Positions 4,015 through 48,291 of a stretch of 57,179 nucleotides of DNA are shown here, piece by piece. The position numbers and the translations under genes are program-made. This DNA is from Oscillospiraceae bacterium (GTDB lineage: Bacteria; Bacillota; Clostridia; Oscillospirales; Oscillospiraceae): positions 1-57,179 of the forward strand of contig JBFWKZ010000001.1 in the NCBI GenBank assembly GCA_050252415.1, written 5' to 3'. The notes beneath the pieces were generated by a model. It was not told the origin of the DNA. It searched no databases and saw only the letters and a program-made list of their open reading frames with translations. The stretch's first letter is position 1. Every line of letters begins with the position of its first letter.

Positions 4015-5623
4015 TAATATCTCCTCGATTGATATGGAAAGATACGAAGAAGGCCGCTCCTTCCTGCGGCTTGCTTTCAACCCGAATTTGCCCGTGATAG
4101 AGTGTCACAAGATTCTTCACCAGCGCAAGGCCTGTGCCACGGCCGGCACCTTTAGTGGAAAAACCGCGCTTAAATATTTTCGGCAGCGTATCCGGCAGAA
4201 TTCCAGGCCCCGTATCTTCAACACAGATCAGCAGACTGTCTGCCTTTTCCCGAATGCTGACGATGATTTCCTTAATGCGGTGGGATGAGCGGTCCAGACT
4301 ATCGGTTGCGTTTTCGATAAGATTACCAAGGATCGTTACCAGAGCGCTGGAAGGCAGGAAACGTTCATCGCCGGAAAGTGAGCTCTGCGGATCTGTGTGC
4401 AGGGAGATGCCAAGCTCGGCGGCACGGCTGGTTTTTCCCACCAGCATTGCGGCAACCGCGGGGTCGCAAATATGATCTCTGATATGGCTGACCTCTTGCT
4501 GCTGCACCCGCGTGATATTCAGGATATATTGCTCGGCTTTTTCGGCCTGACCAAGCTGAATAAGCCCTAATATAATATGTAGTTTGTTCATAAATTCATG
4601 GGTATAAGAACGCATTGCCTCCACCATATGACGCACGCCAGTAAGATCCTCGGCAAGTTCCGTGACCTCGGTGCGGTCACGCAAAATCTCTACCGCACCT
4701 GCGATATTTCCATTTTCCATGATAGGCATACGGTCGGATATGGCACATATGCCGGGGATACGCTGGATGTTCACGTTATATTCGGCTTTTTCGGTTTCCA
4801 GAATACGGGGCAGGTACGATTCGGGATAGATCGTTTTTAAAGGCTCGCCGATAAGGTTCGTTTTGTCATCGATACCCAATATCCTTTTTGCGGCGTGGTT
4901 TATATAGATGATTTTTGCGTCGATATCTATCGCCAGAATGCCTTCTTCCAAGGCCTCGAGAATATCCTCGCGCTGGTTCAGCCGATGCCGGAACGCATCC
5001 GGCTCAAACCCCATCAGAGAGTCTTTGACCGATCGCGAATAGCGGTATGAAAGATAGAAGGCGGCGGCGACTGCGGCGGCGGTTATCAGAGAAAAATAGC
5101 CTATCGTGATTTGCTGCAAATGGTGAATACTGTATGCGCTGATGCCAATCGAGACAAAGCCCAAAAGGTTGCTATCCGAGTCGTGTACAGTGACCAGAGC
5201 GCGTCTTGCCGTGCCCAGTATTCCGGGACCGGCGTTCATATAGCGGTATGATCCCTGCAATGCGGAAATAGACTTTTCATCAGGATATTTTGTTCCAAGA
5301 TAACTGGGGTCCGGACAGTAGAGAATGGTTCCGTCCGCGTCAACGATCACGATGGCGTCAATGTTATAGACCTTTGTGATGACGCCGTCAAGATAGTTCG
5401 TAACATCTTTGAAATCAGAGCGGCCTGTGAGCGCATCGGTCACGCAGGGAGCCTGAGCAATCACCTGAGCGGAATTTAAAAGATTGTTGTCGAGATTCCG
5501 ATATTCCATTTTCATCGTAAACCATAAAATGCCGCCCAAAACCGTAATAATGGCGATAAGCGTAAAAAACAGACTCATATGTGCGAGCTGCTGACGGAAG
5601 GGTATCGGATCGGCTGCTTTCAT
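4007..5623 (-). CDS. sensor histidine kinase, CitA/DcuS family (periplasmic Cache-like domain, PAS, SpoOB-type dimerisation helix, HATPase)
   Basis: There are two TM segments flanking a ~150-aa extracytoplasmic domain, a PAS block 'ILEALEEGILAIDIDAKIIYINHAA', the H-box 'SYTHEFMNKLHIILGLIQLG', and the ATPase motifs 'GNLIENA', 'EDTGPGI' and 'GRGTGLALV'. I chose the start at MKAADPI (ATG 5623-5621) because it is preceded by GGAGA. Confidence 0.85.
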   Translation of the reverse strand: MKAADPIPFRQQLAHMSLFFTLIAIITVLGGILWFTMKMEYRNLDNNLLNSAQVIAQAPCVTDALTGRSDFKDVTNYLDGVITKVYNIDAIVIVDADGTILYCPDPSYLGTKYPDEKSISALQGSYRYMNAGPGILGTARRALVTVHDSDSNLLGFVSIGISAYSIHHLQQITIGYFSLITAAAVAAAFYLSYRYSRSVKDSLMGFEPDAFRHRLNQREDILEALEEGILAIDIDAKIIYINHAAKRILGIDDKTNLIGEPLKTIYPESYLPRILETEKAEYNVNIQRIPGICAISDRMPIMENGNIAGAVEILRDRTEVTELAEDLTGVRHMVEAMRSYTHEFMNKLHIILGLIQLGQAEKAEQYILNITRVQQQEVSHIRDHICDPAVAAMLVGKTSRAAELGISLHTDPQSSLSGDERFLPSSALVTILGNLIENATDSLDRSSHRIKEIIVSIREKADSLLICVEDTGPGILPDTLPKIFKRGFSTKGAGRGTGLALVKNLVTLYHGQIRVESKPQEGAAFFVSFHINRGDINV

Positions 5624-5820: not shown

Positions 5821-6516
5821 ATGGAATCATTTCAAGAATCGATACTTGACAATCTCAGTAATCCCATTGTCTTTACGATCCCGCTTTTCGGCGGCATACC
5901 GGTGGCGCAATCTGTGGTTGGAAGTTGGATAACCATGGCGACGATCATGATACTTACGCTTTTACTTACACAGAACCTCAAAGAACGCAACCCCGGTAAG
6001 GTCCAGATCGTGATTGAAGCAGGCGTCAGCTATTTAAATAACTTCGTTAAGGAACATACCGGCGAGCGATGGCGCTCATTTGCTCCATATCTCGGTACGA
6101 TAACATTATATATTGCGCTTTCAAACGTAAGCGGGCTGTTTGGCATTTCCCCGCCGACAAAGGATGTTAACGTCACGGCGGCGCTTGCCGTTATGAGTGG
6201 AGTGCTCATCTATGGCGCACAGTTTTACTGCCGCGGATTTATAGGCGGACTAAAACATTTTGCAGAGCCAATACCATTGCTTTTGCCCATAAATCTCATG
6301 GAGATATTCGTCCGACCGCTGGCGCTGTGTATGCGACTGTTTGGCAATATATTGGGCGCCTACATTATCATGGAAATGATAAAGTATTTTTTGCCGATCG
6401 TGGTACCCGTGCCGTTCAGTCTGTATTTTGATCTGTTTGACGGAGCAATTCAGACAATAATCTTTGTATTCCTAACAACCCTGTTTCTCGGTGAGGGGAT
6501 TCAGGAAGAAGAATAA
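5821..6516 (+). CDS. atpB: F0F1 ATP synthase subunit a
   Basis: 231-aa polytopic protein with the conserved 'RPLALCMRLFGNILGAYI' (essential Arg helix). It is the first gene of the atp operon and has a GGGAGG RBS. Confidence 0.92.
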   Translation: MESFQESILDNLSNPIVFTIPLFGGIPVAQSVVGSWITMATIMILTLLLTQNLKERNPGKVQIVIEAGVSYLNNFVKEHTGERWRSFAPYLGTITLYIALSNVSGLFGISPPTKDVNVTAALAVMSGVLIYGAQFYCRGFIGGLKHFAEPIPLLLPINLMEIFVRPLALCMRLFGNILGAYIIMEMIKYFLPIVVPVPFSLYFDLFDGAIQTIIFVFLTTLFLGEGIQEEE

Positions 6517-6776: not shown

Positions 6777-7265
6777 ATGTTGGACTTCCAACTATCCACT
6801 ATTGTCTGGACAGTGGTAAACCTTCTGGTTTTGTATTTATTTTTAAAAAAATTCTTATTTGGCCGCATAAATGCGATGCTTGACAAACGCTCACAGATGG
6901 TTGAGGAGACCATTGCCGATGCCGAGCGGAAGCGTACAGAGGCTGAGAAGCTTAGAGCAGACTATGAGAGCCATGTTGCCGCAGCACATGAAGAGGCTGA
7001 GATTATCGTGACTAACGCGAAAAAACGCGCCGATGCCGAGCGCGAGCGCTTACTCAGCGAGGCACAGGAAAATGCGCACGCAATACTCACGGCCGCTCAG
7101 CTGCGGGGGGAGAGAGACAGGGAAAATATGCTGCGCTCAGCGCGTGCGCAGGTCGTTTCTCTGTCGTTGCTTGCCGCCTCGAAACTCGCGGGAAAGAAAC
7201 TGGACAGCGACACAGACCGTGAGATAATCGATGAATTTTTGAACGAAGCAGGTGAGCGCCGATGA
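6777..7265 (+). CDS. atpF: F0F1 ATP synthase subunit b
   Basis: Start at [23 protein letters not shown] (ATG 6777), giving a single N-terminal TM helix followed by a long charged coiled coil. The ORF-track start at 6633 would overlap atpE. Confidence 0.88.
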
Positions 7266-41611: not shown

Positions 41612-42508
41612 TTATGCGCTGTCAAGTATGGACTGGACAGGAAGAAGACAGGTTCGATTATAACGTGGAATGTTGTTAAGGCATTTTTCATCGCGGGTGA
41701 CGTAAAAAGTACTGGAATCCGAACCCAATGTCGCCAAGAATCCAAGATTTCGGATCACAGAAGCGCTGTCCTGCGGTACGGCGCCAGATGGATAGGTAAA
41801 CGTGTTTGGCACGATGCCGAGCTCATCCCGGAAGCGGTTTTGCATCTTTGTGACGTCGGTATAAAGCCATGTACGATAGGCCACAAGTTTTTCCCCGACA
41901 TAATGGCCTGTGCCGATATAATTTTTTTTAAAATATTGCAAATCATAAGTGTAGTTTTGCAGCTCGATGACGCCGCTTTTTTGCATTTCACGAAGCTGAT
42001 CCCATGTGCAGCGGGCATAATTTTCGTTTGTATCCGGCTTGACGGTATACTTATCGGTCTCGGCGCCGACGACGGAAAAGACAGCCCGCAGATCATACGC
42101 CCTGAGAATGGGATAGGCATAGAGATAATTGTTGTAATACCCGCCGTCGATTGTGACCATGACCGGCTGTTCCGGCAGCGGGGTTCCGTACTTCACATAG
42201 GCTATAATATCCGCCATAACGACCGTGTGATAACCGGAATCCCTGAGATACGCCATGTCATGGCGGAAGCTTTCGGTCGTTATCACATCGTCACCGGATT
42301 TTTCAGGGTCGCTGATAATGGCGTGATACACGAATACCGGTAGCTTGATGCGCTCGGCATCATTAACGCCCGGAGACATCCGCGCGGCAACCGCACCGAG
42401 AGAGGCCATCGCAGACACGACGGCGATAAGCGTAATCACAATTTTGAATTTAAAAAGCTTTCGTTCAAACCGCGCTCTCTTATCCCACACGAATATCATC
42501 TCCTCCAT
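41612..42508 (-). CDS. membrane-anchored polysaccharide deacetylase (NodB-homology) family protein
   Basis: 298 aa with an N-terminal TM helix. 'LPVFVYHAI', 'VMVTIDGGYYNNY' and 'FTYPSGA' are typical of NodB-type deacetylases. Confidence 0.75.
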   Translation of the reverse strand: MEEMIFVWDKRARFERKLFKFKIVITLIAVVSAMASLGAVAARMSPGVNDAERIKLPVFVYHAIISDPEKSGDDVITTESFRHDMAYLRDSGYHTVVMADIIAYVKYGTPLPEQPVMVTIDGGYYNNYLYAYPILRAYDLRAVFSVVGAETDKYTVKPDTNENYARCTWDQLREMQKSGVIELQNYTYDLQYFKKNYIGTGHYVGEKLVAYRTWLYTDVTKMQNRFRDELGIVPNTFTYPSGAVPQDSASVIRNLGFLATLGSDSSTFYVTRDEKCLNNIPRYNRTCLLPVQSILDSA

Positions 42509-42604
42509 AGCAGTATACGTCGTTCCGAGCGCTATAACAGCGTTAATAACAGGCAGGAGCGGGAGATATTTAAAATATAAAAAGTTCCAATTTAATTAAA
42601 GATG

Positions 42605-42957
42605 TGGTATAATAGCCGCAAAGCGGCTATTATACCCGGCATGCCGGACGGTTCCGCCTTTGGCGGGAGTCCGGCTGCCATTTCTGTCGCGACCGCCTCG
42701 CCCCTTGTGGGGCAACCGGCGGCGATGACAATTATACCATGAATTCGAAAAATTCATGGTATAATAACCGCAAAGCGGCTATTATACCCGGCATGCCGGA
42801 CGGTTCCCTTTGGCGGGAGTCCGGCTGCCATTTCTGTCGCGACCGCCTCGCCCCTTGTGGGGCAACCGGCGGCGATGACAATTATACCATGAATTCGAAA
42901 AATTCATGGTATAATAACCGCAAAGCGGCTATTATACCCGGCATGCCGGACGGTTCC
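42605..42957. repeat. 2.3 tandem copies of a ~150-bp highly structured non-coding repeat
   Basis: Unit 1 is 42605-42756 (152 bp), unit 2 is 42757-42906 (150 bp), and a partial unit 3 is 42907-~42957. The units differ only by one G/A change and a 2-nt indel. Each unit begins with TGGTATAAT and contains four GC-rich hairpins. Confidence 0.9.
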
Positions 42958-43090
42958 GCTTCGCTCTGCTACGGAACGCACCGGCGGCGAGTGTGCACGC
43001 CCCCGGAAGTGACAGATTTGAATTTATTTCCGCCGTGCTCGGCGAAAATTTAAGCGAGGCTTCTCATAGTCGCATAGTTTTGACAGGCTG

Positions 43091-43123
43091 AGATACCACA
43101 AAGCTTATCGCTTTGTGGTATCT
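43091..43123 (+). promoter_or_regulatory. perfect 14-bp-stem hairpin in the uvrB leader/promoter region
   Basis: AGATACCACAAAGC-ttatc-GCTTTGTGGTATCT, 70 nt upstream of the uvrB ATG. No U-tract follows. Confidence 0.4.
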
Positions 43124-43192
43124 TGATATCCTAGCGTTATACGATGAGAGACGGGCGGCTGCGGCTGCATATGAGGAGGATTTAGGGAACAT

Positions 43193-45157
43193 ATGTCGGA
43201 TTTTCACGTCAAAAGTGAATATAGCCCCTCCGGCGATCAGCCGGAGGCGATTGAGGCGCTTGTCAAGGGTGTGGAAAATGGCATTGAGGAACAGGTGCTC
43301 CTTGGTGTCACCGGTTCCGGAAAGACCTATACCATGGCGAAGGTCATTGAGCGGCTTGGAAGACCCGCGCTGATCCTTGCGCATAACAAGACGCTTGCCG
43401 CCCAGCTCTGCTCCGAGTTCCGCGAATTTTTTCCCGATAATGCCGTTGAGTATTTCGTCTCCTACTACGACTATTATCAGCCGGAGGCATATATTCCGCA
43501 TACGGACACCTTTATCGAAAAAGACAGCAGCATCAATGATGAGATCGAGCGCCTGCGCCACTCTGCGACCGCCAGTCTCTTCGAGCGGCGGGACGTTATC
43601 GTCGTGGCTTCCGTCTCCTGCATATACGGACTGGGCGACCCCATCGATTATGCCAACATGGTCATCTCTGTCCGTCCGGGACAGCGCAGAGACCGGGACG
43701 AGCTCATGCGAAAGCTTATCGACATCCGCTATGAGCGAAACGATATCGCCTTCGAGCGGAATATGTTCCGGGTTCGCGGCGACACGGTGGAAATATTTCC
43801 GGCATATGCGACCGACAAGGCGATCCGTATTGAGTTTTTCGGTGATGAGGTGGACAGAATAAGTGAGATAAATGTTGTCACCGGAACGGCACAGCGCTCG
43901 CTGCAGCATGTGGCGATCTACCCTGCCAGCCACTATGTCACGACCAAGGAAAAGATGGAGGCCGCAATCCACGAAATCCGTGCCGAGTGCGATGAGCGGG
44001 TAAAGTTTTTTGAGGATAATGGCAAGCTTTTGGAGGCCCAGAGAATAAAGCAGCGCACAATGTATGATATTGAGATGATGCAGGAGCTCGGCTATTGCTC
44101 CGGCATTGAGAATTATTCCCGCATTATAAGCGGGAGAGCGCCCGGCTCGCCGCCCATGACGCTGCTCGACTATTTTCCGAAGGATTTCATCCTGTTTGTG
44201 GATGAGAGCCACGTCACCCTGCCGCAGGTGCGCGCCATGTATGCCGGCGACAGGGCGAGGAAAGAGACCCTGGTCGAATACGGCTTTCGGCTGCCCTCGG
44301 CTTTTGATAACCGGCCGCTTAAATTTGATGAGTTCAACGCGCACATCAATCAGGCCGTCTATGTCTCCGCCACACCCGGCGATTATGAGCGCGAACGTGC
44401 GGGACAGATTGCCGAGCAGATCATCCGCCCGACGGGACTGCTGGACCCCGTTATCGTTGTCCGGCCGGTCGAGGGCCAAATCGACGACCTCATCGGAGAG
44501 ATCACAAAGCGCGTGGAGAAAAGCGAGCGCACGCTCGTGACGACCCTGACGAAGAAAATGGCGGAGGACCTGACCAATTACCTCACCGGCGCGGGCGTCC
44601 GATGCCGGTATATGCACCACGACATCGGGACTATCGAGCGCATGGAGATCATCCGCTCGCTGAGGCTTGGCGAATTCGACGTGCTGGTCGGCATCAATCT
44701 CCTGCGCGAGGGGCTGGATTTACCGGAGGTCAGCCTTGTCGCGATACTCGATGCGGACAAGGAGGGTTTCCTGCGCAGTGAGACGAGCCTTATCCAGACC
44801 ATAGGCAGGGCCGCGCGCAATGCGGACGGCACAGTGATCATGTATGCCGACATCGAGACCCGATCGATGAAGGCGGCGATCGATGAGACAAACCGGCGCC
44901 GTGCAAAGCAGATGGCGTATAACGAGAAAAACGGCATCACGCCAAAGACGATCATCAAGAGCGTCCGGGACATTATAGAGATATCCGGCAGTGTTGACAA
45001 TGCACCTCGAAAAGACGGAATCACCATGACGGCGCGTGAACGCAGAGAAGAGATCGCCAAACTGGAGAAAGAGATGAAGAAGGCGTCTCAGATGCTCGAG
45101 TTCGAGTATGCCGCCATACTGCGCGACAGAATTATAAAACTCCGCGGAGAGAGCTGA
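43193..45157 (+). CDS. uvrB: excinuclease ABC subunit B
   Basis: 654 aa with 'GDQPEAI', 'GVTGSGKT', 'DESHVT', helicase motifs and a C-terminal UVR domain '[11 protein letters not shown]'. Confidence 0.97.
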
Positions 45158-46449: not shown

Positions 46450-48291
46450 GTGAGCATGATTAAATCAAATCAAAAAGGCGGCCACTCGGCCGCTCCACAT
46501 AAAAAAAGCGATAGCGACAAAAAAACAGTGAAACGCGCAAGGGGCTATGATATGCCCCAGATTCCAAAAAGGAAGAAAAAAAATCCGGTTGGCATCATCA
46601 TCGCAGCGGCGATCGTTGCCGCAATATTTTTAGTTGCGGCAATGACCGCAATGTACGTAAACGGGCTCCAGACGATTTATCCGAACGTCAGCTTCGCCGG
46701 CGTGGATGTCGGCGGCATGTCGATATCCGAGGCGGGCGATGCGCTGGAGGCGGCGGGCTATGGTTTCGGCGATGAGAGCGTATCCGTTGCACTCCCGCTG
46801 AATGAAACGCTTGTCATCCCGATAACTGAGGCTTTTAAATCCGCAACGCCGATCGAAGCGGCGGCGGAACTCTATGCCTATGGCAGAGATGGGAATCCCC
46901 TGCAAAACCTCATTGCGTACTTAAGATGTTTAACAGACGGCTATTCTCCCACACCCGGCAGTATTATGAGCATTGACGAGGATTATGTTAAACAGATGGT
47001 GACGGATGAGGTCCAGACTGTCAATGCCGAGCTTATGGCTTCCGGACTGACCATTGGCGAGACAGAAATAACCGTTGTCAAGGGGGCAAAGTCTATCATT
47101 GTGGATGGCAATGCCGTCTATACCCTTGTGATGAATGCCCTCCAGAGCGGCAGTTACGGTGCTGTGAGCTATACGCCGCAGAGTACCGGGGAAGAAGATG
47201 TCGATCTCCAAAGTGTCTACGACACGGTGTATAAAGAGGCTAAGAATGCGGAATATGACCCCGAGACCGAGTCCGCGACGCAGCATGTCACGGGCGTGAG
47301 TTTCGATCTTGACGCGGCAAAGGCCATGTGGGACAGCGCCTCACTGGGGGACACCGTTGTCATACCGCTCATTATAACGGAACCGGAAATCACCACGGAT
47401 TACCTGAACAGCCGGCTGTTTTCCGATGTGCTCGCAGAAAAGACCACGAGCCTTTACGGCAGCAGCGCCGCGAGAATCAACAATGTCACTAAGGCGTGCC
47501 AGTCGATCGATGGGATTGTTCTGAATCCGGGCGACGAATTTTCATATAACACGGCGCTTGGCAAGCGTACCGAAGAGGCGGGATACCAGTCGGCAGGCGC
47601 CTATTCCGGCGGTGAGGTCGTGTCCGAACTGGGCGGCGGTATCTGCCAGGTTTCGTCCACGCTCTATTACTGCACGCTGTATTCAAATCTTAAGATCACT
47701 GCCCGCACCTGCCACTATTTTCCGGTCGCTTATCTCCCGGCGGGGCTGGACGCGACGGTGAGCTGGGGAGGACCGGAGTTTAAATTTGTCAACGACCGGG
47801 ACTATCCGATAAAGATTTCCGCTTCGGTTGAGGGCAACAGCTGTCATGTCCAGATAATCGGTACGGATGTCGATGGCAGCTATGTTGAAATTACTACCGA
47901 GTCGTGGCTTAATAATGACGGCAGTACGGGCGTGAACTCCTATCGCTGGCTCTACGACAAGGACGGCAATCTACTGAGCAAGACGAAGGAGTCCAGCAGC
48001 AAATACCATGTTCACAAGGACGAGCAGGAGAGTCCCGAGCCCAGCGAGTCCCCGGTTGTGACGGAGTCCCCGGTTGTGACGGAGTCCCCGGTTGTGACGG
48101 AGTCCCCGGTTGTGACGGAGTCCCCGGCTGTGACGGAGTCCCCGGTTGTGACGGAGTCCCCGGTTGTGACGGAGTCCCCGGTTGTGACGGAGTCTCCGGA
48201 CGCGACGGAGTCTCCGGACGCGGCGGAGTCCCCGGACGCGGCGGAGTCTCCGGACGCGACGGAGTCTCCGGACGTGACGGAGCCAGTTTGA
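46450..48291 (+). CDS. membrane-anchored VanW-family protein ending in an (E-S-P-x-x-T)n repeat tail
   Basis: N-terminal basic region plus TM helix 'VGIIIAAAIVAAIFLVAAM'. The VanW core is 'GGGICQVSSTLYYCTLYSNLKITARTCH...GLDATVSWG'. The C-terminus is ~13 tandem hexapeptides. Confidence 0.85.
   Translation: MSMIKSNQKGGHSAAPHKKSDSDKKTVKRARGYDMPQIPKRKKKNPVGIIIAAAIVAAIFLVAAMTAMYVNGLQTIYPNVSFAGVDVGGMSISEAGDALEAAGYGFGDESVSVALPLNETLVIPITEAFKSATPIEAAAELYAYGRDGNPLQNLIAYLRCLTDGYSPTPGSIMSIDEDYVKQMVTDEVQTVNAELMASGLTIGETEITVVKGAKSIIVDGNAVYTLVMNALQSGSYGAVSYTPQSTGEEDVDLQSVYDTVYKEAKNAEYDPETESATQHVTGVSFDLDAAKAMWDSASLGDTVVIPLIITEPEITTDYLNSRLFSDVLAEKTTSLYGSSAARINNVTKACQSIDGIVLNPGDEFSYNTALGKRTEEAGYQSAGAYSGGEVVSELGGGICQVSSTLYYCTLYSNLKITARTCHYFPVAYLPAGLDATVSWGGPEFKFVNDRDYPIKISASVEGNSCHVQIIGTDVDGSYVEITTESWLNNDGSTGVNSYRWLYDKDGNLLSKTKESSSKYHVHKDEQESPEPSESPVVTESPVVTESPVVTESPVVTESPAVTESPVVTESPVVTESPVVTESPDATESPDAAESPDAAESPDATESPDVTEPV
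48046..48279 (+). repeat. 18-bp in-frame tandem repeat array (~13 units) at the 3' end of the VanW gene
   Basis: The unit is gagtccccggttgtgacg (ESPVVT), with variants ESPAVT, ESPDAT, ESPDAA and ESPDVT. Eight near-identical units are followed by five diverged units. Confidence 0.9.

Follow-up and report, generated by a model that had tools for sequence, protein, structure and literature searches.

What is the tandem repeat that separates a polysaccharide deacetylase gene from uvrB in an Oscillospiraceae bacterium, and does it serve uvrB, encode RNAs of its own or belong to something more widely dispersed? The 684-bp spacer between these divergent genes lies in a stretch of 57,179 nucleotides (assembly GCA_050252415.1, contig JBFWKZ010000001.1), which is called the window below. 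An initial annotation had described about 2.3 tandem units of four hairpins, A to D, with TGnTATAAT motifs on both strands, and had suggested a tandemly duplicated small RNA (sRNA) or riboregulator gene, a structured element resembling a MITE (a miniature transposable element with inverted repeats) or a promoter-duplication cassette. In the present study, we conclude, with a probability of about 0.7, that positions 42605-43124 are one locus of a dispersed, non-coding family of mosaic palindromic repeats, which is embedded in sigma-A promoters of Clostridia.

First, the layout of the array was examined. Tandem Repeats Finder delimited it at 42605-42957 (period 150, 2.3 copies, 98% matches), in units of 152, 150 and about 51 bp with the hairpin order B, C, D, A in each unit, and the units and all four hairpins were recovered with the coordinates and the quality of pairing originally reported. 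A repeat search of the window showed that 42657-42806 and 42807-42956 are 100% identical, and the three 53-nt unit heads share 94-98% identity, being distinguished by a single G/A substitution and an indel of 2 nt. The extended -10 box, TGGTATAAT, is indeed present on both strands, three times on the plus strand (42605, 42757 and 42907) and twice on the minus strand (42731-42739 and 42881-42889) of the array, and the whole window contains six copies against 0.34 expected, a number reached in 0 of 100 shuffles. A single unit folds as four consecutive hairpins (-99.9 kcal/mol; z = -11.1 as RNA and z = -11.3 as DNA), and the fold of the opposite strand is equally strong. Hairpins A and B have GGTATAAT in common and are mutually exclusive, which is true across the repeat family; the shared segment behind the proposed switch is real in structural terms, and any regulatory role of it would be hypothetical. 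The absence of a known RNA family was borne out, as Rfam covariance models gave no match to the window at the gathering score (the best sub-threshold match was at chance level) and, among 15 array-bearing loci, matched only a T-box and a tRNA, both outside the arrays. A tRNA search was also negative. The best sub-threshold scores were 18 bits for STnc540 (threshold 38) and 22.9 bits for the radC motif (threshold 40); the latter, at L011 2276-2395 in an array of Anaerotruncus colihominis (E = 0.028; loci are cited by their numbers), is probably a chance match to GC-rich hairpins.

Second, the array has relatives in many genomes. One genome per species (GTDB) was scanned with the hairpin B pattern GGTATAATANCCGC-N3-4-GCNGNTATTATACC, which specifies 25 bases, and all counts of arrays, flanks, modules and neighbours given here were taken among the matches listed, at least 119 stretches. 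The 31-bp hairpin B palindrome was found in at least 119 stretches of at least about 65 species-representative assemblies (counted by accession prefix), with up to nine loci per genome among the matches listed. The hosts belong to three orders of Clostridia, including Oscillospiraceae, Lachnospiraceae and Anaerovoracaceae, and comprise A. colihominis (two genomes, with 5 and 8 loci), Intestinimonas butyriciproducens, Papillibacter cinnamivorans, Bittarella, Marasmitruncus, Lawsonibacter, Flavonifractor, Evtepia, Gemmiger, Bacilliculturomica and several metagenome-assembled genomes (MAGs) of Lachnospiraceae. Numerous matches are found no more than a few dozen bases from a contig end; this is expected, because repeats break assemblies. 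Neither a BLASTN search of the spacer against plasmids and phages nor a pattern scan of IMG/VR gave a match, suggesting that the element is apparently not borne by phages or plasmids.

The units of this family follow a common plan, in which a conserved hairpin B is followed by one or two variable GC-rich hairpin modules and then by hairpin A. Hairpin A consists of ATTATACCA, a variable small stem-loop and TGGTATAAT, and its right arm doubles as the left arm of the next hairpin B. The modules sort into 46 families and vary between genomes, sometimes even between adjacent units of one array (L011); units are near-identical inside one genome, and modules differ between genera. Two to six strict hairpin B copies, arranged head-to-tail with periods of 89-252 nt (most near 110), were observed in 29 of 123 arrays, and since only 12 of 47 periods are divisible by 3, the arrays are considered to be non-coding. 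The two-module plan of the window and a CATGAATT...AATTCATG junction hairpin recur at loci of a Clostridiales MAG (L019, L060, L073, L087 and L094); the junction type of the window's own hairpin A is found in L073, L060, L019 and L094, and L073 has the complete B-C-D-A architecture. Copy number also changes at corresponding sites, with one unit in L118 and three in L030 at one orthologous locus, and one unit in the closest relative of the window (L003) compared with 2.3 in the window. These results bear on the simplest explanation, a private, recent and neutral duplication of the uvrB promoter region without relatives elsewhere. Units 2 and 3 are 100% identical over their common part and the window holds no second copy, as such a duplication would predict; nevertheless, it is refuted as a full explanation by the presence of hairpin B at at least 119 loci in at least about 65 genomes, by the 90-94% identity of module D to copies in Papillibacter, L029 and L003, and by the junction hairpin in common with the bin54 loci. 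What is recent and local is the last step, from one to 2.3 units.

The modules appear to be conserved as structures. Module D of the window shares 90-94% identity over 28-42 nt with modules in Papillibacter, L029, L003 and L107. Among 20 distinct copies chosen by the CTCGCC..GGCAACC core only, the flanking helices differ and yet remain complementary (CCGCC/GGCGG, TTTTC/GAAAA, GAACC/GGTTC and CCGGC/GCCGG). In two alignments, one of 24 sequences and one of 46 matches made with a covariance model, 93-95% of the cells were paired compared with 65-69% in shuffles, 7-8 of 10 pairs were altered on both sides, and the covariation score was 0.62-0.65, compared with 0.16-0.17 after shuffling and at most 0.25 when partners were slid by 1-3 columns. 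These figures include, for module D, 95% paired cells against 65% in shuffles, 8 of 10 pairs altered on both sides, and a score of 0.65 against 0.155 after shuffling and at most 0.16 with slid partners. Moreover, modules chosen by position alone had a median minimum free energy z-score of -2.1. Hairpin C of the window fits the module D motif on the opposite strand in both the motif scan and the covariance model, which suggests that the window unit contains an inverted pair of one motif; the model match to hairpin C of unit 1 at 42634-42682(-), 30 bits, is partly circular because the hairpin C sequence belonged to the training set. In hairpin B, stem position 10 covaries (A-T 98, G-C 30, T-A 18), and the 9 outermost base pairs of either arm hardly vary among the three orders, a constancy partly forced by the search pattern. 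Such constancy, together with the overlap of the palindrome with the -10 and +1 positions, might be expected of an operator array, in which GGTATAAT-N15-ATTATACC palindromes are bound by a dimeric protein or sequester sigma-A or RNA polymerase. We regard this as very improbable, since the joint changes on both arms at position 10 fit a nucleic-acid hairpin or cruciform better than a protein contact, part of the invariance comes from the search itself, and no regulator gene recurs nearby.

Third, the uvrB loci of related genomes include both empty and filled sites. The UvrB and deacetylase sequences of the window gave no hit when looked up as exact sequences; relatives were found by a UvrB homology search, and the loci of five usable relatives were compared. 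The UvrB of the window is closest to proteins of Oscillospiraceae MAGs, and the best named relative is Candidatus Heteroscillospira (89% identity). Two relatives with 89% UvrB identity (L001 and L004) have the same gene order, short spacers and no element; their uvrB promoters are gatgTGGTATACT and tttgTGTTATACT, with a -10 box alone (TGGTATACT or TGTTATACT) located 36-46 nt before the ATG. In the more distant L005 and L006, uvrB is also preceded by a -10 box alone, plain TGGTATAAT or TGATATAAT. The closest relative, L003 (91% UvrB identity), carries exactly one unit, B-C'-D-E, which begins at TGGTATAAT and folds into the same four hairpins as the window unit (z = -6.7); the sequence of its hairpin C is unlike that of the window, and its pairing is equivalent through compensatory changes. 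The terminal hairpin of L003, ATTACCACAAAGC-ctagg-GCTTTGTGGTATAT, is the counterpart of the perfect 14-bp hairpin at 43091-43123 of the window. Because the single unit of L003 also finishes with such a hairpin, the latter is considered to be the terminal A-type hairpin of the family. Accordingly, the tandem units are as first described, but the element does not end with the partial third unit and runs on to this hairpin, which had been noted as a related sequence and is homologous to the one closing the L003 unit. A further locus, L002 (P0002; 3167-5500), encodes a UvrB homologue of 777 aa rather than the usual length of about 655 aa in a different neighbourhood (after radC), and was dropped from the comparison for its unrelated uvrB context.

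The insertion point can be recognized from the same loci. In the window, the sequence leading into the first TGGTATAAT, GTTCCAATTTA...TG.TATA.T, corresponds collinearly to the promoter of uvrB at the empty site L004, and the second -10-like box of L003, TGGTATATT, is located 44 nt before the ATG, at the same distance as the -10 box in the empty sites; in the window, the degenerate box TGGTATCTT lies 68 nt before the uvrB ATG. Thus, the ancestral -10 box immediately precedes the element, whose end is formed by a second -10-like box. It is flanked by direct TGGTATAAT / TGGTATA(T/C)T copies, and empty sites have one such box. The flanking 9-mer is present at every family locus, and so may belong to the element itself or be a specific target instead of a duplication.

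These comparisons leave little room for a cis-regulatory leader (a riboswitch, an attenuator or a protein-binding site) dedicated to uvrB or to DNA repair, which is close to refuted. The element does lie between the promoter and uvrB, it is kept in L003 with compensatory changes, and its hairpins A and B are mutually exclusive. However, it is missing in relatives with 89% identical UvrB and the same synteny, its copy number is variable, and the same unit types precede genes for WYL, ParA, phosphoglucomutase, GlpP, CdaA, Dus, subtilase and other proteins. In addition, no LexA (Cheo) box with up to two mismatches was found in the spacer 42509-43192 upstream of uvrB. The nearest likeness to such a box, GGAACATATGTCGG, has three mismatches, overlaps the start codon and is mostly present in L003 too (GGAACATATGTCGA).

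Fourth, the arrays occupy a defined position and orientation with respect to promoters and genes. About 7 nt beyond the -10 box, hairpin B has a loop that is purine-rich on the module-facing strand (AAA 55, AGA 21, also AAG), and array orientation was defined by this purine-rich loop on the strand where the modules follow. At 110 non-redundant left junctions to host DNA, a T almost always stands directly before GGTATAAT, and TTG was observed 16, 17 and 18 nt upstream of TATAAT at 11, 17 and 8 boundaries, respectively, compared with a background of 1.8 per position. Together, 36 of 110 boundaries have TTG at 16-18 nt against 5.3 expected (Poisson P about 2e-18). As this -35 box is host DNA, the first TGGTATAAT is predicted to be the -10 box of a genuine sigma-A promoter; the -35 box is present before the first unit only, and the purine loop is located where transcription would start. 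The next downstream gene is co-oriented with 69 arrays and convergent with 10 (P = 6e-12), arrays between co-directional genes are sense in 33 cases and antisense in 2, and in 22 of 48 arrays a distance of 15-80 nt separates the last -10-like box from the start codon that follows. At the sequence level, all features of an extended -10 sigma-A promoter are therefore found, including TGnTATAAT, TTGnnn 16-18 nt upstream, a purine start and a downstream gene. Pfam scans of 20 downstream genes gave no match for one of them and placed the remaining 19 in 19 unrelated families, including a WYL regulator, ParA, phosphoglucomutase, GlpP, LuxR, an endonuclease-IV-like fold, an epimerase, PNP, GH18, a DinG-like helicase, CdaA, NYN, Dus and subtilase, which argues against an element of one regulon. 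Family units also adjoin tRNA genes (L113 ~6859-7023 and L094 ~6250-6411), and since the L113 unit is immediately upstream of a tRNA, the association with promoters reaches beyond protein genes.

The same data speak on the idea of an array of sRNA genes, in which each unit would use its own extended -10 promoter to produce a structured sRNA of about 110-150 nt. Each unit does contain one perfect TGnTATAAT with purines at about +7, the unit folds are strong and the module helices covary. This explanation is nevertheless improbable, and the tandemly duplicated sRNA or riboregulator gene initially considered did not hold up. No conserved terminator follows the units, the terminator-like sites being specific to the window or weak and absent from the A. 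colihominis and Intestinimonas units, and the minus-strand T-run after hairpin B is peculiar to the hairpin A loop of the window. Only the first unit has a -35 box, the modules are interchangeable (46 families of many unrelated kinds), the arrays stand tightly upstream of unrelated protein genes in the sense orientation, no Rfam model matches, and the element is absent from two close relatives. The other two early suggestions were each half right. The repeat is MITE-like in being dispersed, multi-copy, structured and non-coding; its GGTATAAT and ATTATACC inverted repeats adjoin each other in hairpins A and B and are not located at the two ends of a unit. It resembles a promoter-duplication cassette in that its conserved end is a sigma-A -10 box that is apparently used with host -35 boxes.

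Herein, we propose a history for the uvrB locus as part of such a dispersed repeat family. In the ancestor of the source organism and L003, one unit would have been placed directly after the -10 box of the uvrB promoter, and in the source lineage the head of the element would then have been amplified to 2.3 copies, probably by recombination or slippage between repeated units, or else by re-insertion beside a resident TGGTATAAT. The old -35 box and the distal TGGTATAAT might start a leader of about 580 nt, running from the purine loop of hairpin B through the hairpins into uvrB. The internal TGGTATAAT boxes and the degenerate last box may act as -35-independent extended -10 promoters towards uvrB, and from the two minus-strand boxes transcription could proceed towards the deacetylase gene. 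As for its nature, the family most likely represents a selfish or neutral element comparable to MITEs, bacterial interspersed mosaic elements (BIMEs) or BOX, and we propose that it is tolerated at promoters because the displaced -10 box is rebuilt. Selection alone could yield the observed promoter bias.

As to how such units might spread, one specific mechanism lies within the dispersed-family interpretation and does not contradict it, and is put forward tentatively as possible though unlikely. A mobile promoter cassette would home to sigma-A -10 boxes, where an excised unit, perhaps single-stranded, would integrate by pairing of its ATTATACC with TGGTATAAT, the latter possibly being single-stranded in the open complex or at the replication fork, in a manner comparable with the guide sequences of IS200/IS605 or of repetitive extragenic palindromic (REP) sequences and REP-associated tyrosine transposases (RAYT). 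The unit would integrate right after the box and end in a fresh TGGTATAAT, so that the host promoter survives; as each unit ends in the target sequence, re-insertion would stack units head-to-tail, and portable -35-independent promoters facing both ways would spread through gut Clostridia. Several observations are consistent with homing. The element lies between direct TGGTATAAT copies, the distal of which is orthologous to the -10 box of empty sites; host -35 boxes stand at the correct spacing in one third of the flanks; in hairpins A and B alike, a small GC hairpin lies between every TGGTATAAT and the neighbouring inverted copy with which it pairs; and the arrays are head-to-tail. Also, units are near-identical within a genome and modules differ between genera, and the unlikeness of the junction and terminal hairpins of the window would be expected if units came from elsewhere. 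However, among the genes within 8 kb of the 119 loci there is no recurrent transposase, whether HUH, RAYT or other; the arrays have ragged right ends; neither a circular junction nor a recent insertion polymorphism within a species was seen; and the enrichment at promoters could equally be explained by selection against insertions elsewhere.

Several results weigh against the interpretation of the locus as a member of a dispersed, promoter-embedded family, or limit it. In the window, the internal junction hairpin (CCATGAATT/AATTCATGG, 42731-42765) and the terminal hairpin (CCACAAAGC/GCTTTGTGG, 43091-43123, common to L003) are different subtypes, which suggests that the array is no plain duplication of an L003-like unit. 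None of the 125 fetched loci matched the 105-nt tail at 42986-43090, which stands in place of module D and includes a hairpin, TTTCCGCCGtgctCGGCGAAA. The 57-kb window has the array at the uvrB locus only, with no second copy elsewhere in it, and no match to the window-specific B/C junction was obtained from the JGI metagenomes scanned, so dispersal within the source genome itself is at most putative. A metagenome scan with the uvrB start region for sister strains also gave no match. Since hairpin B was the bait of the scan, its constancy is partly a matter of ascertainment, and some rows of the covariation alignments were selected by Watson-Crick complementarity, so that only the outer helix (stem 2) of the 20-copy core subset provides an unbiased test. 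The right ends of arrays are ragged, located either after TGGTATAAT or within a partial hairpin B, which fits poorly with a clean cut-and-paste mechanism. Clustering of the open reading frames (ORFs) within 8 kb of 119 loci revealed no transposase or other gene recurring by the arrays; the recurring clusters were only large paralogous families (ABC ATPases and histidine kinases) without a fixed position and spurious ORFs of the arrays themselves. The reverse strand was the more stable in 80 of 114 modules, but in only 23 versus 19 module families, the preference being one of the large families, and the G-T and A-C mismatches of hairpin B showed no strand bias; strand assignment from G-U versus A-C pairs and fold energies was dropped because the answers conflict. 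Finally, promoter use, start sites and any effect on uvrB are predicted from sequence statistics.

By analogy, the closest functional likeness would be to the BIMEs of enterobacteria and pseudomonads and to the BOX elements of pneumococci, and the family appears to be a member of neither. Both are described as structured repeats of composite build, which vary in their tandem arrangement and are transcribed together with adjacent genes (PMC2817692, PMC3116915, PMC3049150), and the REP sequences (REPINs) and BIMEs of Proteobacteria as mobilised by RAYT transposases (PMC2817692, PMC3116915). Like BIMEs, the present family is composite, non-coding and interspersed, and is built of regular GC-rich imperfect palindromes in alternating orientation: module C runs opposite to D, and hairpin A opposite to B. 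Both have specific linker motifs, are amplified in tandem and occur as variants that differ from species to species, and in both an asymmetric internal loop lends each palindrome a polarity. In hairpin A of A. colihominis, the CCGC-NNN-GCGG core is inverted relative to hairpin B, the alternation of palindromes that characterizes REP and BIME. REP palindromes have a conserved GT(A/G)G tetranucleotide alongside, but neither GTAG nor CTAC is present in 42605-42957, and among the ORFs of the 119 8-kb loci no Y1-transposase-like cluster recurred and no RAYT was seen nearby. The hosts also differ, being Bacillota, and the linkers here are AT-rich hairpins with a perfect extended -10 box. REP elements are found mainly after genes or between the genes of operons, whereas the new family is extragenic but upstream of genes, in the sense orientation (69:10) and with host -35 boxes. 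Accounts of REP elements as 3'-UTR regulators with roles in transcription termination are given in PMC2817692 and bioRxiv 10.64898/2026.03.23.713779.

BOX of Streptococcus pneumoniae has the structure boxA-boxB(n)-boxC (PMC3049150) and is likewise a composite repeat of a Firmicute, in which the number of tandem internal modules varies and array length differs between strains. Fixed ends, a variable module number and length polymorphism are also found here (L118 against L030, and the window against L003), as an analogy only. BOX is, in addition, highly structured and co-transcribed, and its neighbours belong to no functional class, as in the present family; BOX itself can raise or lower downstream expression. 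No sequence relationship with BOX was found, although no direct comparison was made. BOX, RUP and SPRITE are over-represented between convergent genes (PMC3049150, Table 1 for BOX), whereas the new family is rare before convergent genes (10 of 79 arrays scored for the downstream gene), and BOX has neither a built-in -10 box nor a fixed relation to a host -35 box.

Three other systems invite comparison. Correia elements generate a TA target duplication. These MITEs of Neisseria are repeats of small size with a defined structure, whose ends can give rise to functional promoters and which are transcribed together with genes (as summarised in PMC3049150); in contrast to the present family, they have 26-bp terminal inverted repeats, occur as single units rather than head-to-tail arrays and are not confined to pre-existing promoters. 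Putative mobile promoters are near-identical promoter sequences before unrelated genes, common to several genera (PMC3575422), but that work catalogues similar upstream regions generally and involves no hairpin mosaic, tandem units or -10-centred palindrome. Palindrome-associated elements derived from IS200/IS605 and other HUH-processed hairpin elements (PMC6006769) resemble the family in their subterminal hairpins, their insertion next to a short specific sequence recognised through internal guide pairing and the lack of long terminal inverted repeats; here, however, no TnpA was found and the supposed 9-nt target is fully paired with an inverted copy at both ends. No insertion sequence with GGTATAAT/ATTATACC ends was seen among the neighbouring ORFs of the arrays.

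In Proteobacteria, pneumococci and Neisseria, small mosaic repeats of the interspersed kind have been studied in detail. For Oscillospiraceae and Lachnospiraceae, which are dominant in gut communities, we found no description of such a repeat; a literature search revealed no searchable paper with the characteristic 14-mers of the family and no earlier account under mobile promoters or under REP/BIME in Clostridia. Thus, the units do correspond in kind to a repetitive extragenic element, an outcome that had been said to reduce their interest, and the family itself is apparently undescribed. What distinguishes it is that it is built round an optimal extended -10 box and lies in promoters, facing the gene, whereas classic families gather after genes; this tie to promoter -10 boxes, as read from the sequences, is unusual and statistically solid. 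If the boxes fire, they would provide leaders, extra promoters and divergent antisense promoters for dozens of unrelated genes per genome, and the added promoters would vary in copy number between strains. If spread does target -10 boxes, it would represent a new insertion specificity. The repeats are also of practical importance, since many MAG contigs end in them and gene callers set spurious ORFs across the arrays. Such long ORFs were observed at L011 2171-5378 (1069 codons) and at 42596-43053 of the window (104 and 53 codons), and in an all-against-all protein comparison they group as a false "protein family". The features of the window locus are listed in the table.

Table. Features of the deacetylase-uvrB spacer and its flanking genes (window coordinates)
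Feature	Position	Strand	Basis or remark
Polysaccharide deacetylase gene, divergent neighbour	41612-42508	-	Pfam domains of orthologues
-35-like hexamer TTCCAA, host DNA	42585-42590	+	17 nt upstream of first TATAAT; read from sequence
Distal TGGTATAAT, extended -10 box, left arm of hairpin B1	42605-42613	+	Orthologous to the uvrB -10 box of element-free relatives
Hairpin B, unit 1 (GGTATAATAGCCGC-aaa-GCGGCTATTATACC), family signature	42606-42636		14 bp, 100% pairing; family scan; stem position 10 covaries
Hairpin C, unit 1, D-type motif (CTC / GC stem / AAC, flanking helix)	42638-42679	-	Fold, motif scan
Hairpin D, unit 1, CCGCC-CTC-GCCCC-ttgt-GGGGC-AACC-GGCGG within outer helix	42685-42730	+	Fold; covariance model 55.9 bits; covariation
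Hairpin A, junction 1/2 (ATTATACCATGAATT-cgaaa-AATTCATGGTATAAT)	42731-42765		15 bp, perfect; minus TGGTATAAT 42731-42739 and plus TGGTATAAT 42757-42765
Hairpin B, unit 2	42758-42788		Inverted repeat search; 93% complementary, one A-C mismatch
Hairpin C, unit 2, 2 nt shorter	42786-42832	-	Covariance model 20.3 bits
Hairpin D, unit 2	42835-42880	+	Covariance model 55.9 bits
Hairpin A, junction 2/3, TGGTATAAT on both strands	42881-42915		Inverted repeat search; 15 bp, perfect
Hairpin B, unit 3	42908-42938		Inverted repeat search; 93% complementary, one A-C mismatch
Truncated variant of hairpin C, unit 3	42939-42985		Arms 42945-42958 and 42972-42985
Diverged tail at the expected place of module D, partly structured	42986-43090		Matchless in fetched loci
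Terminal A-type hairpin E (AGATACCACAAAGC-ttatc-GCTTTGTGGTATCT)	43091-43124		Ends in degenerate proximal -10 box TGGTATCTT
uvrB, co-oriented downstream gene	43193-45157	+	

Two minor observations were also made. A reading of hairpin B as a terminator was dropped, since an extended stem with a T-run was present in only two solo copies. In these copies (L117 ~5277-5330 and L104 ~4856-4910), the host flanks lengthen the palindrome by about 10 bp and a T-run follows (aaaagcatgt, hairpin B, acatgctttttt), and the copies resemble terminators acting in both directions, built on the 31-bp core of the family. Apart from the array, the window has a single tandem repeat, at 48046-48282, which consists of an 18-bp unit repeated 13 times within an ORF at 46450-48291 (+), and encodes ESPVVT/ESPDAT hexapeptides at the C-terminus of a VanW-like protein.

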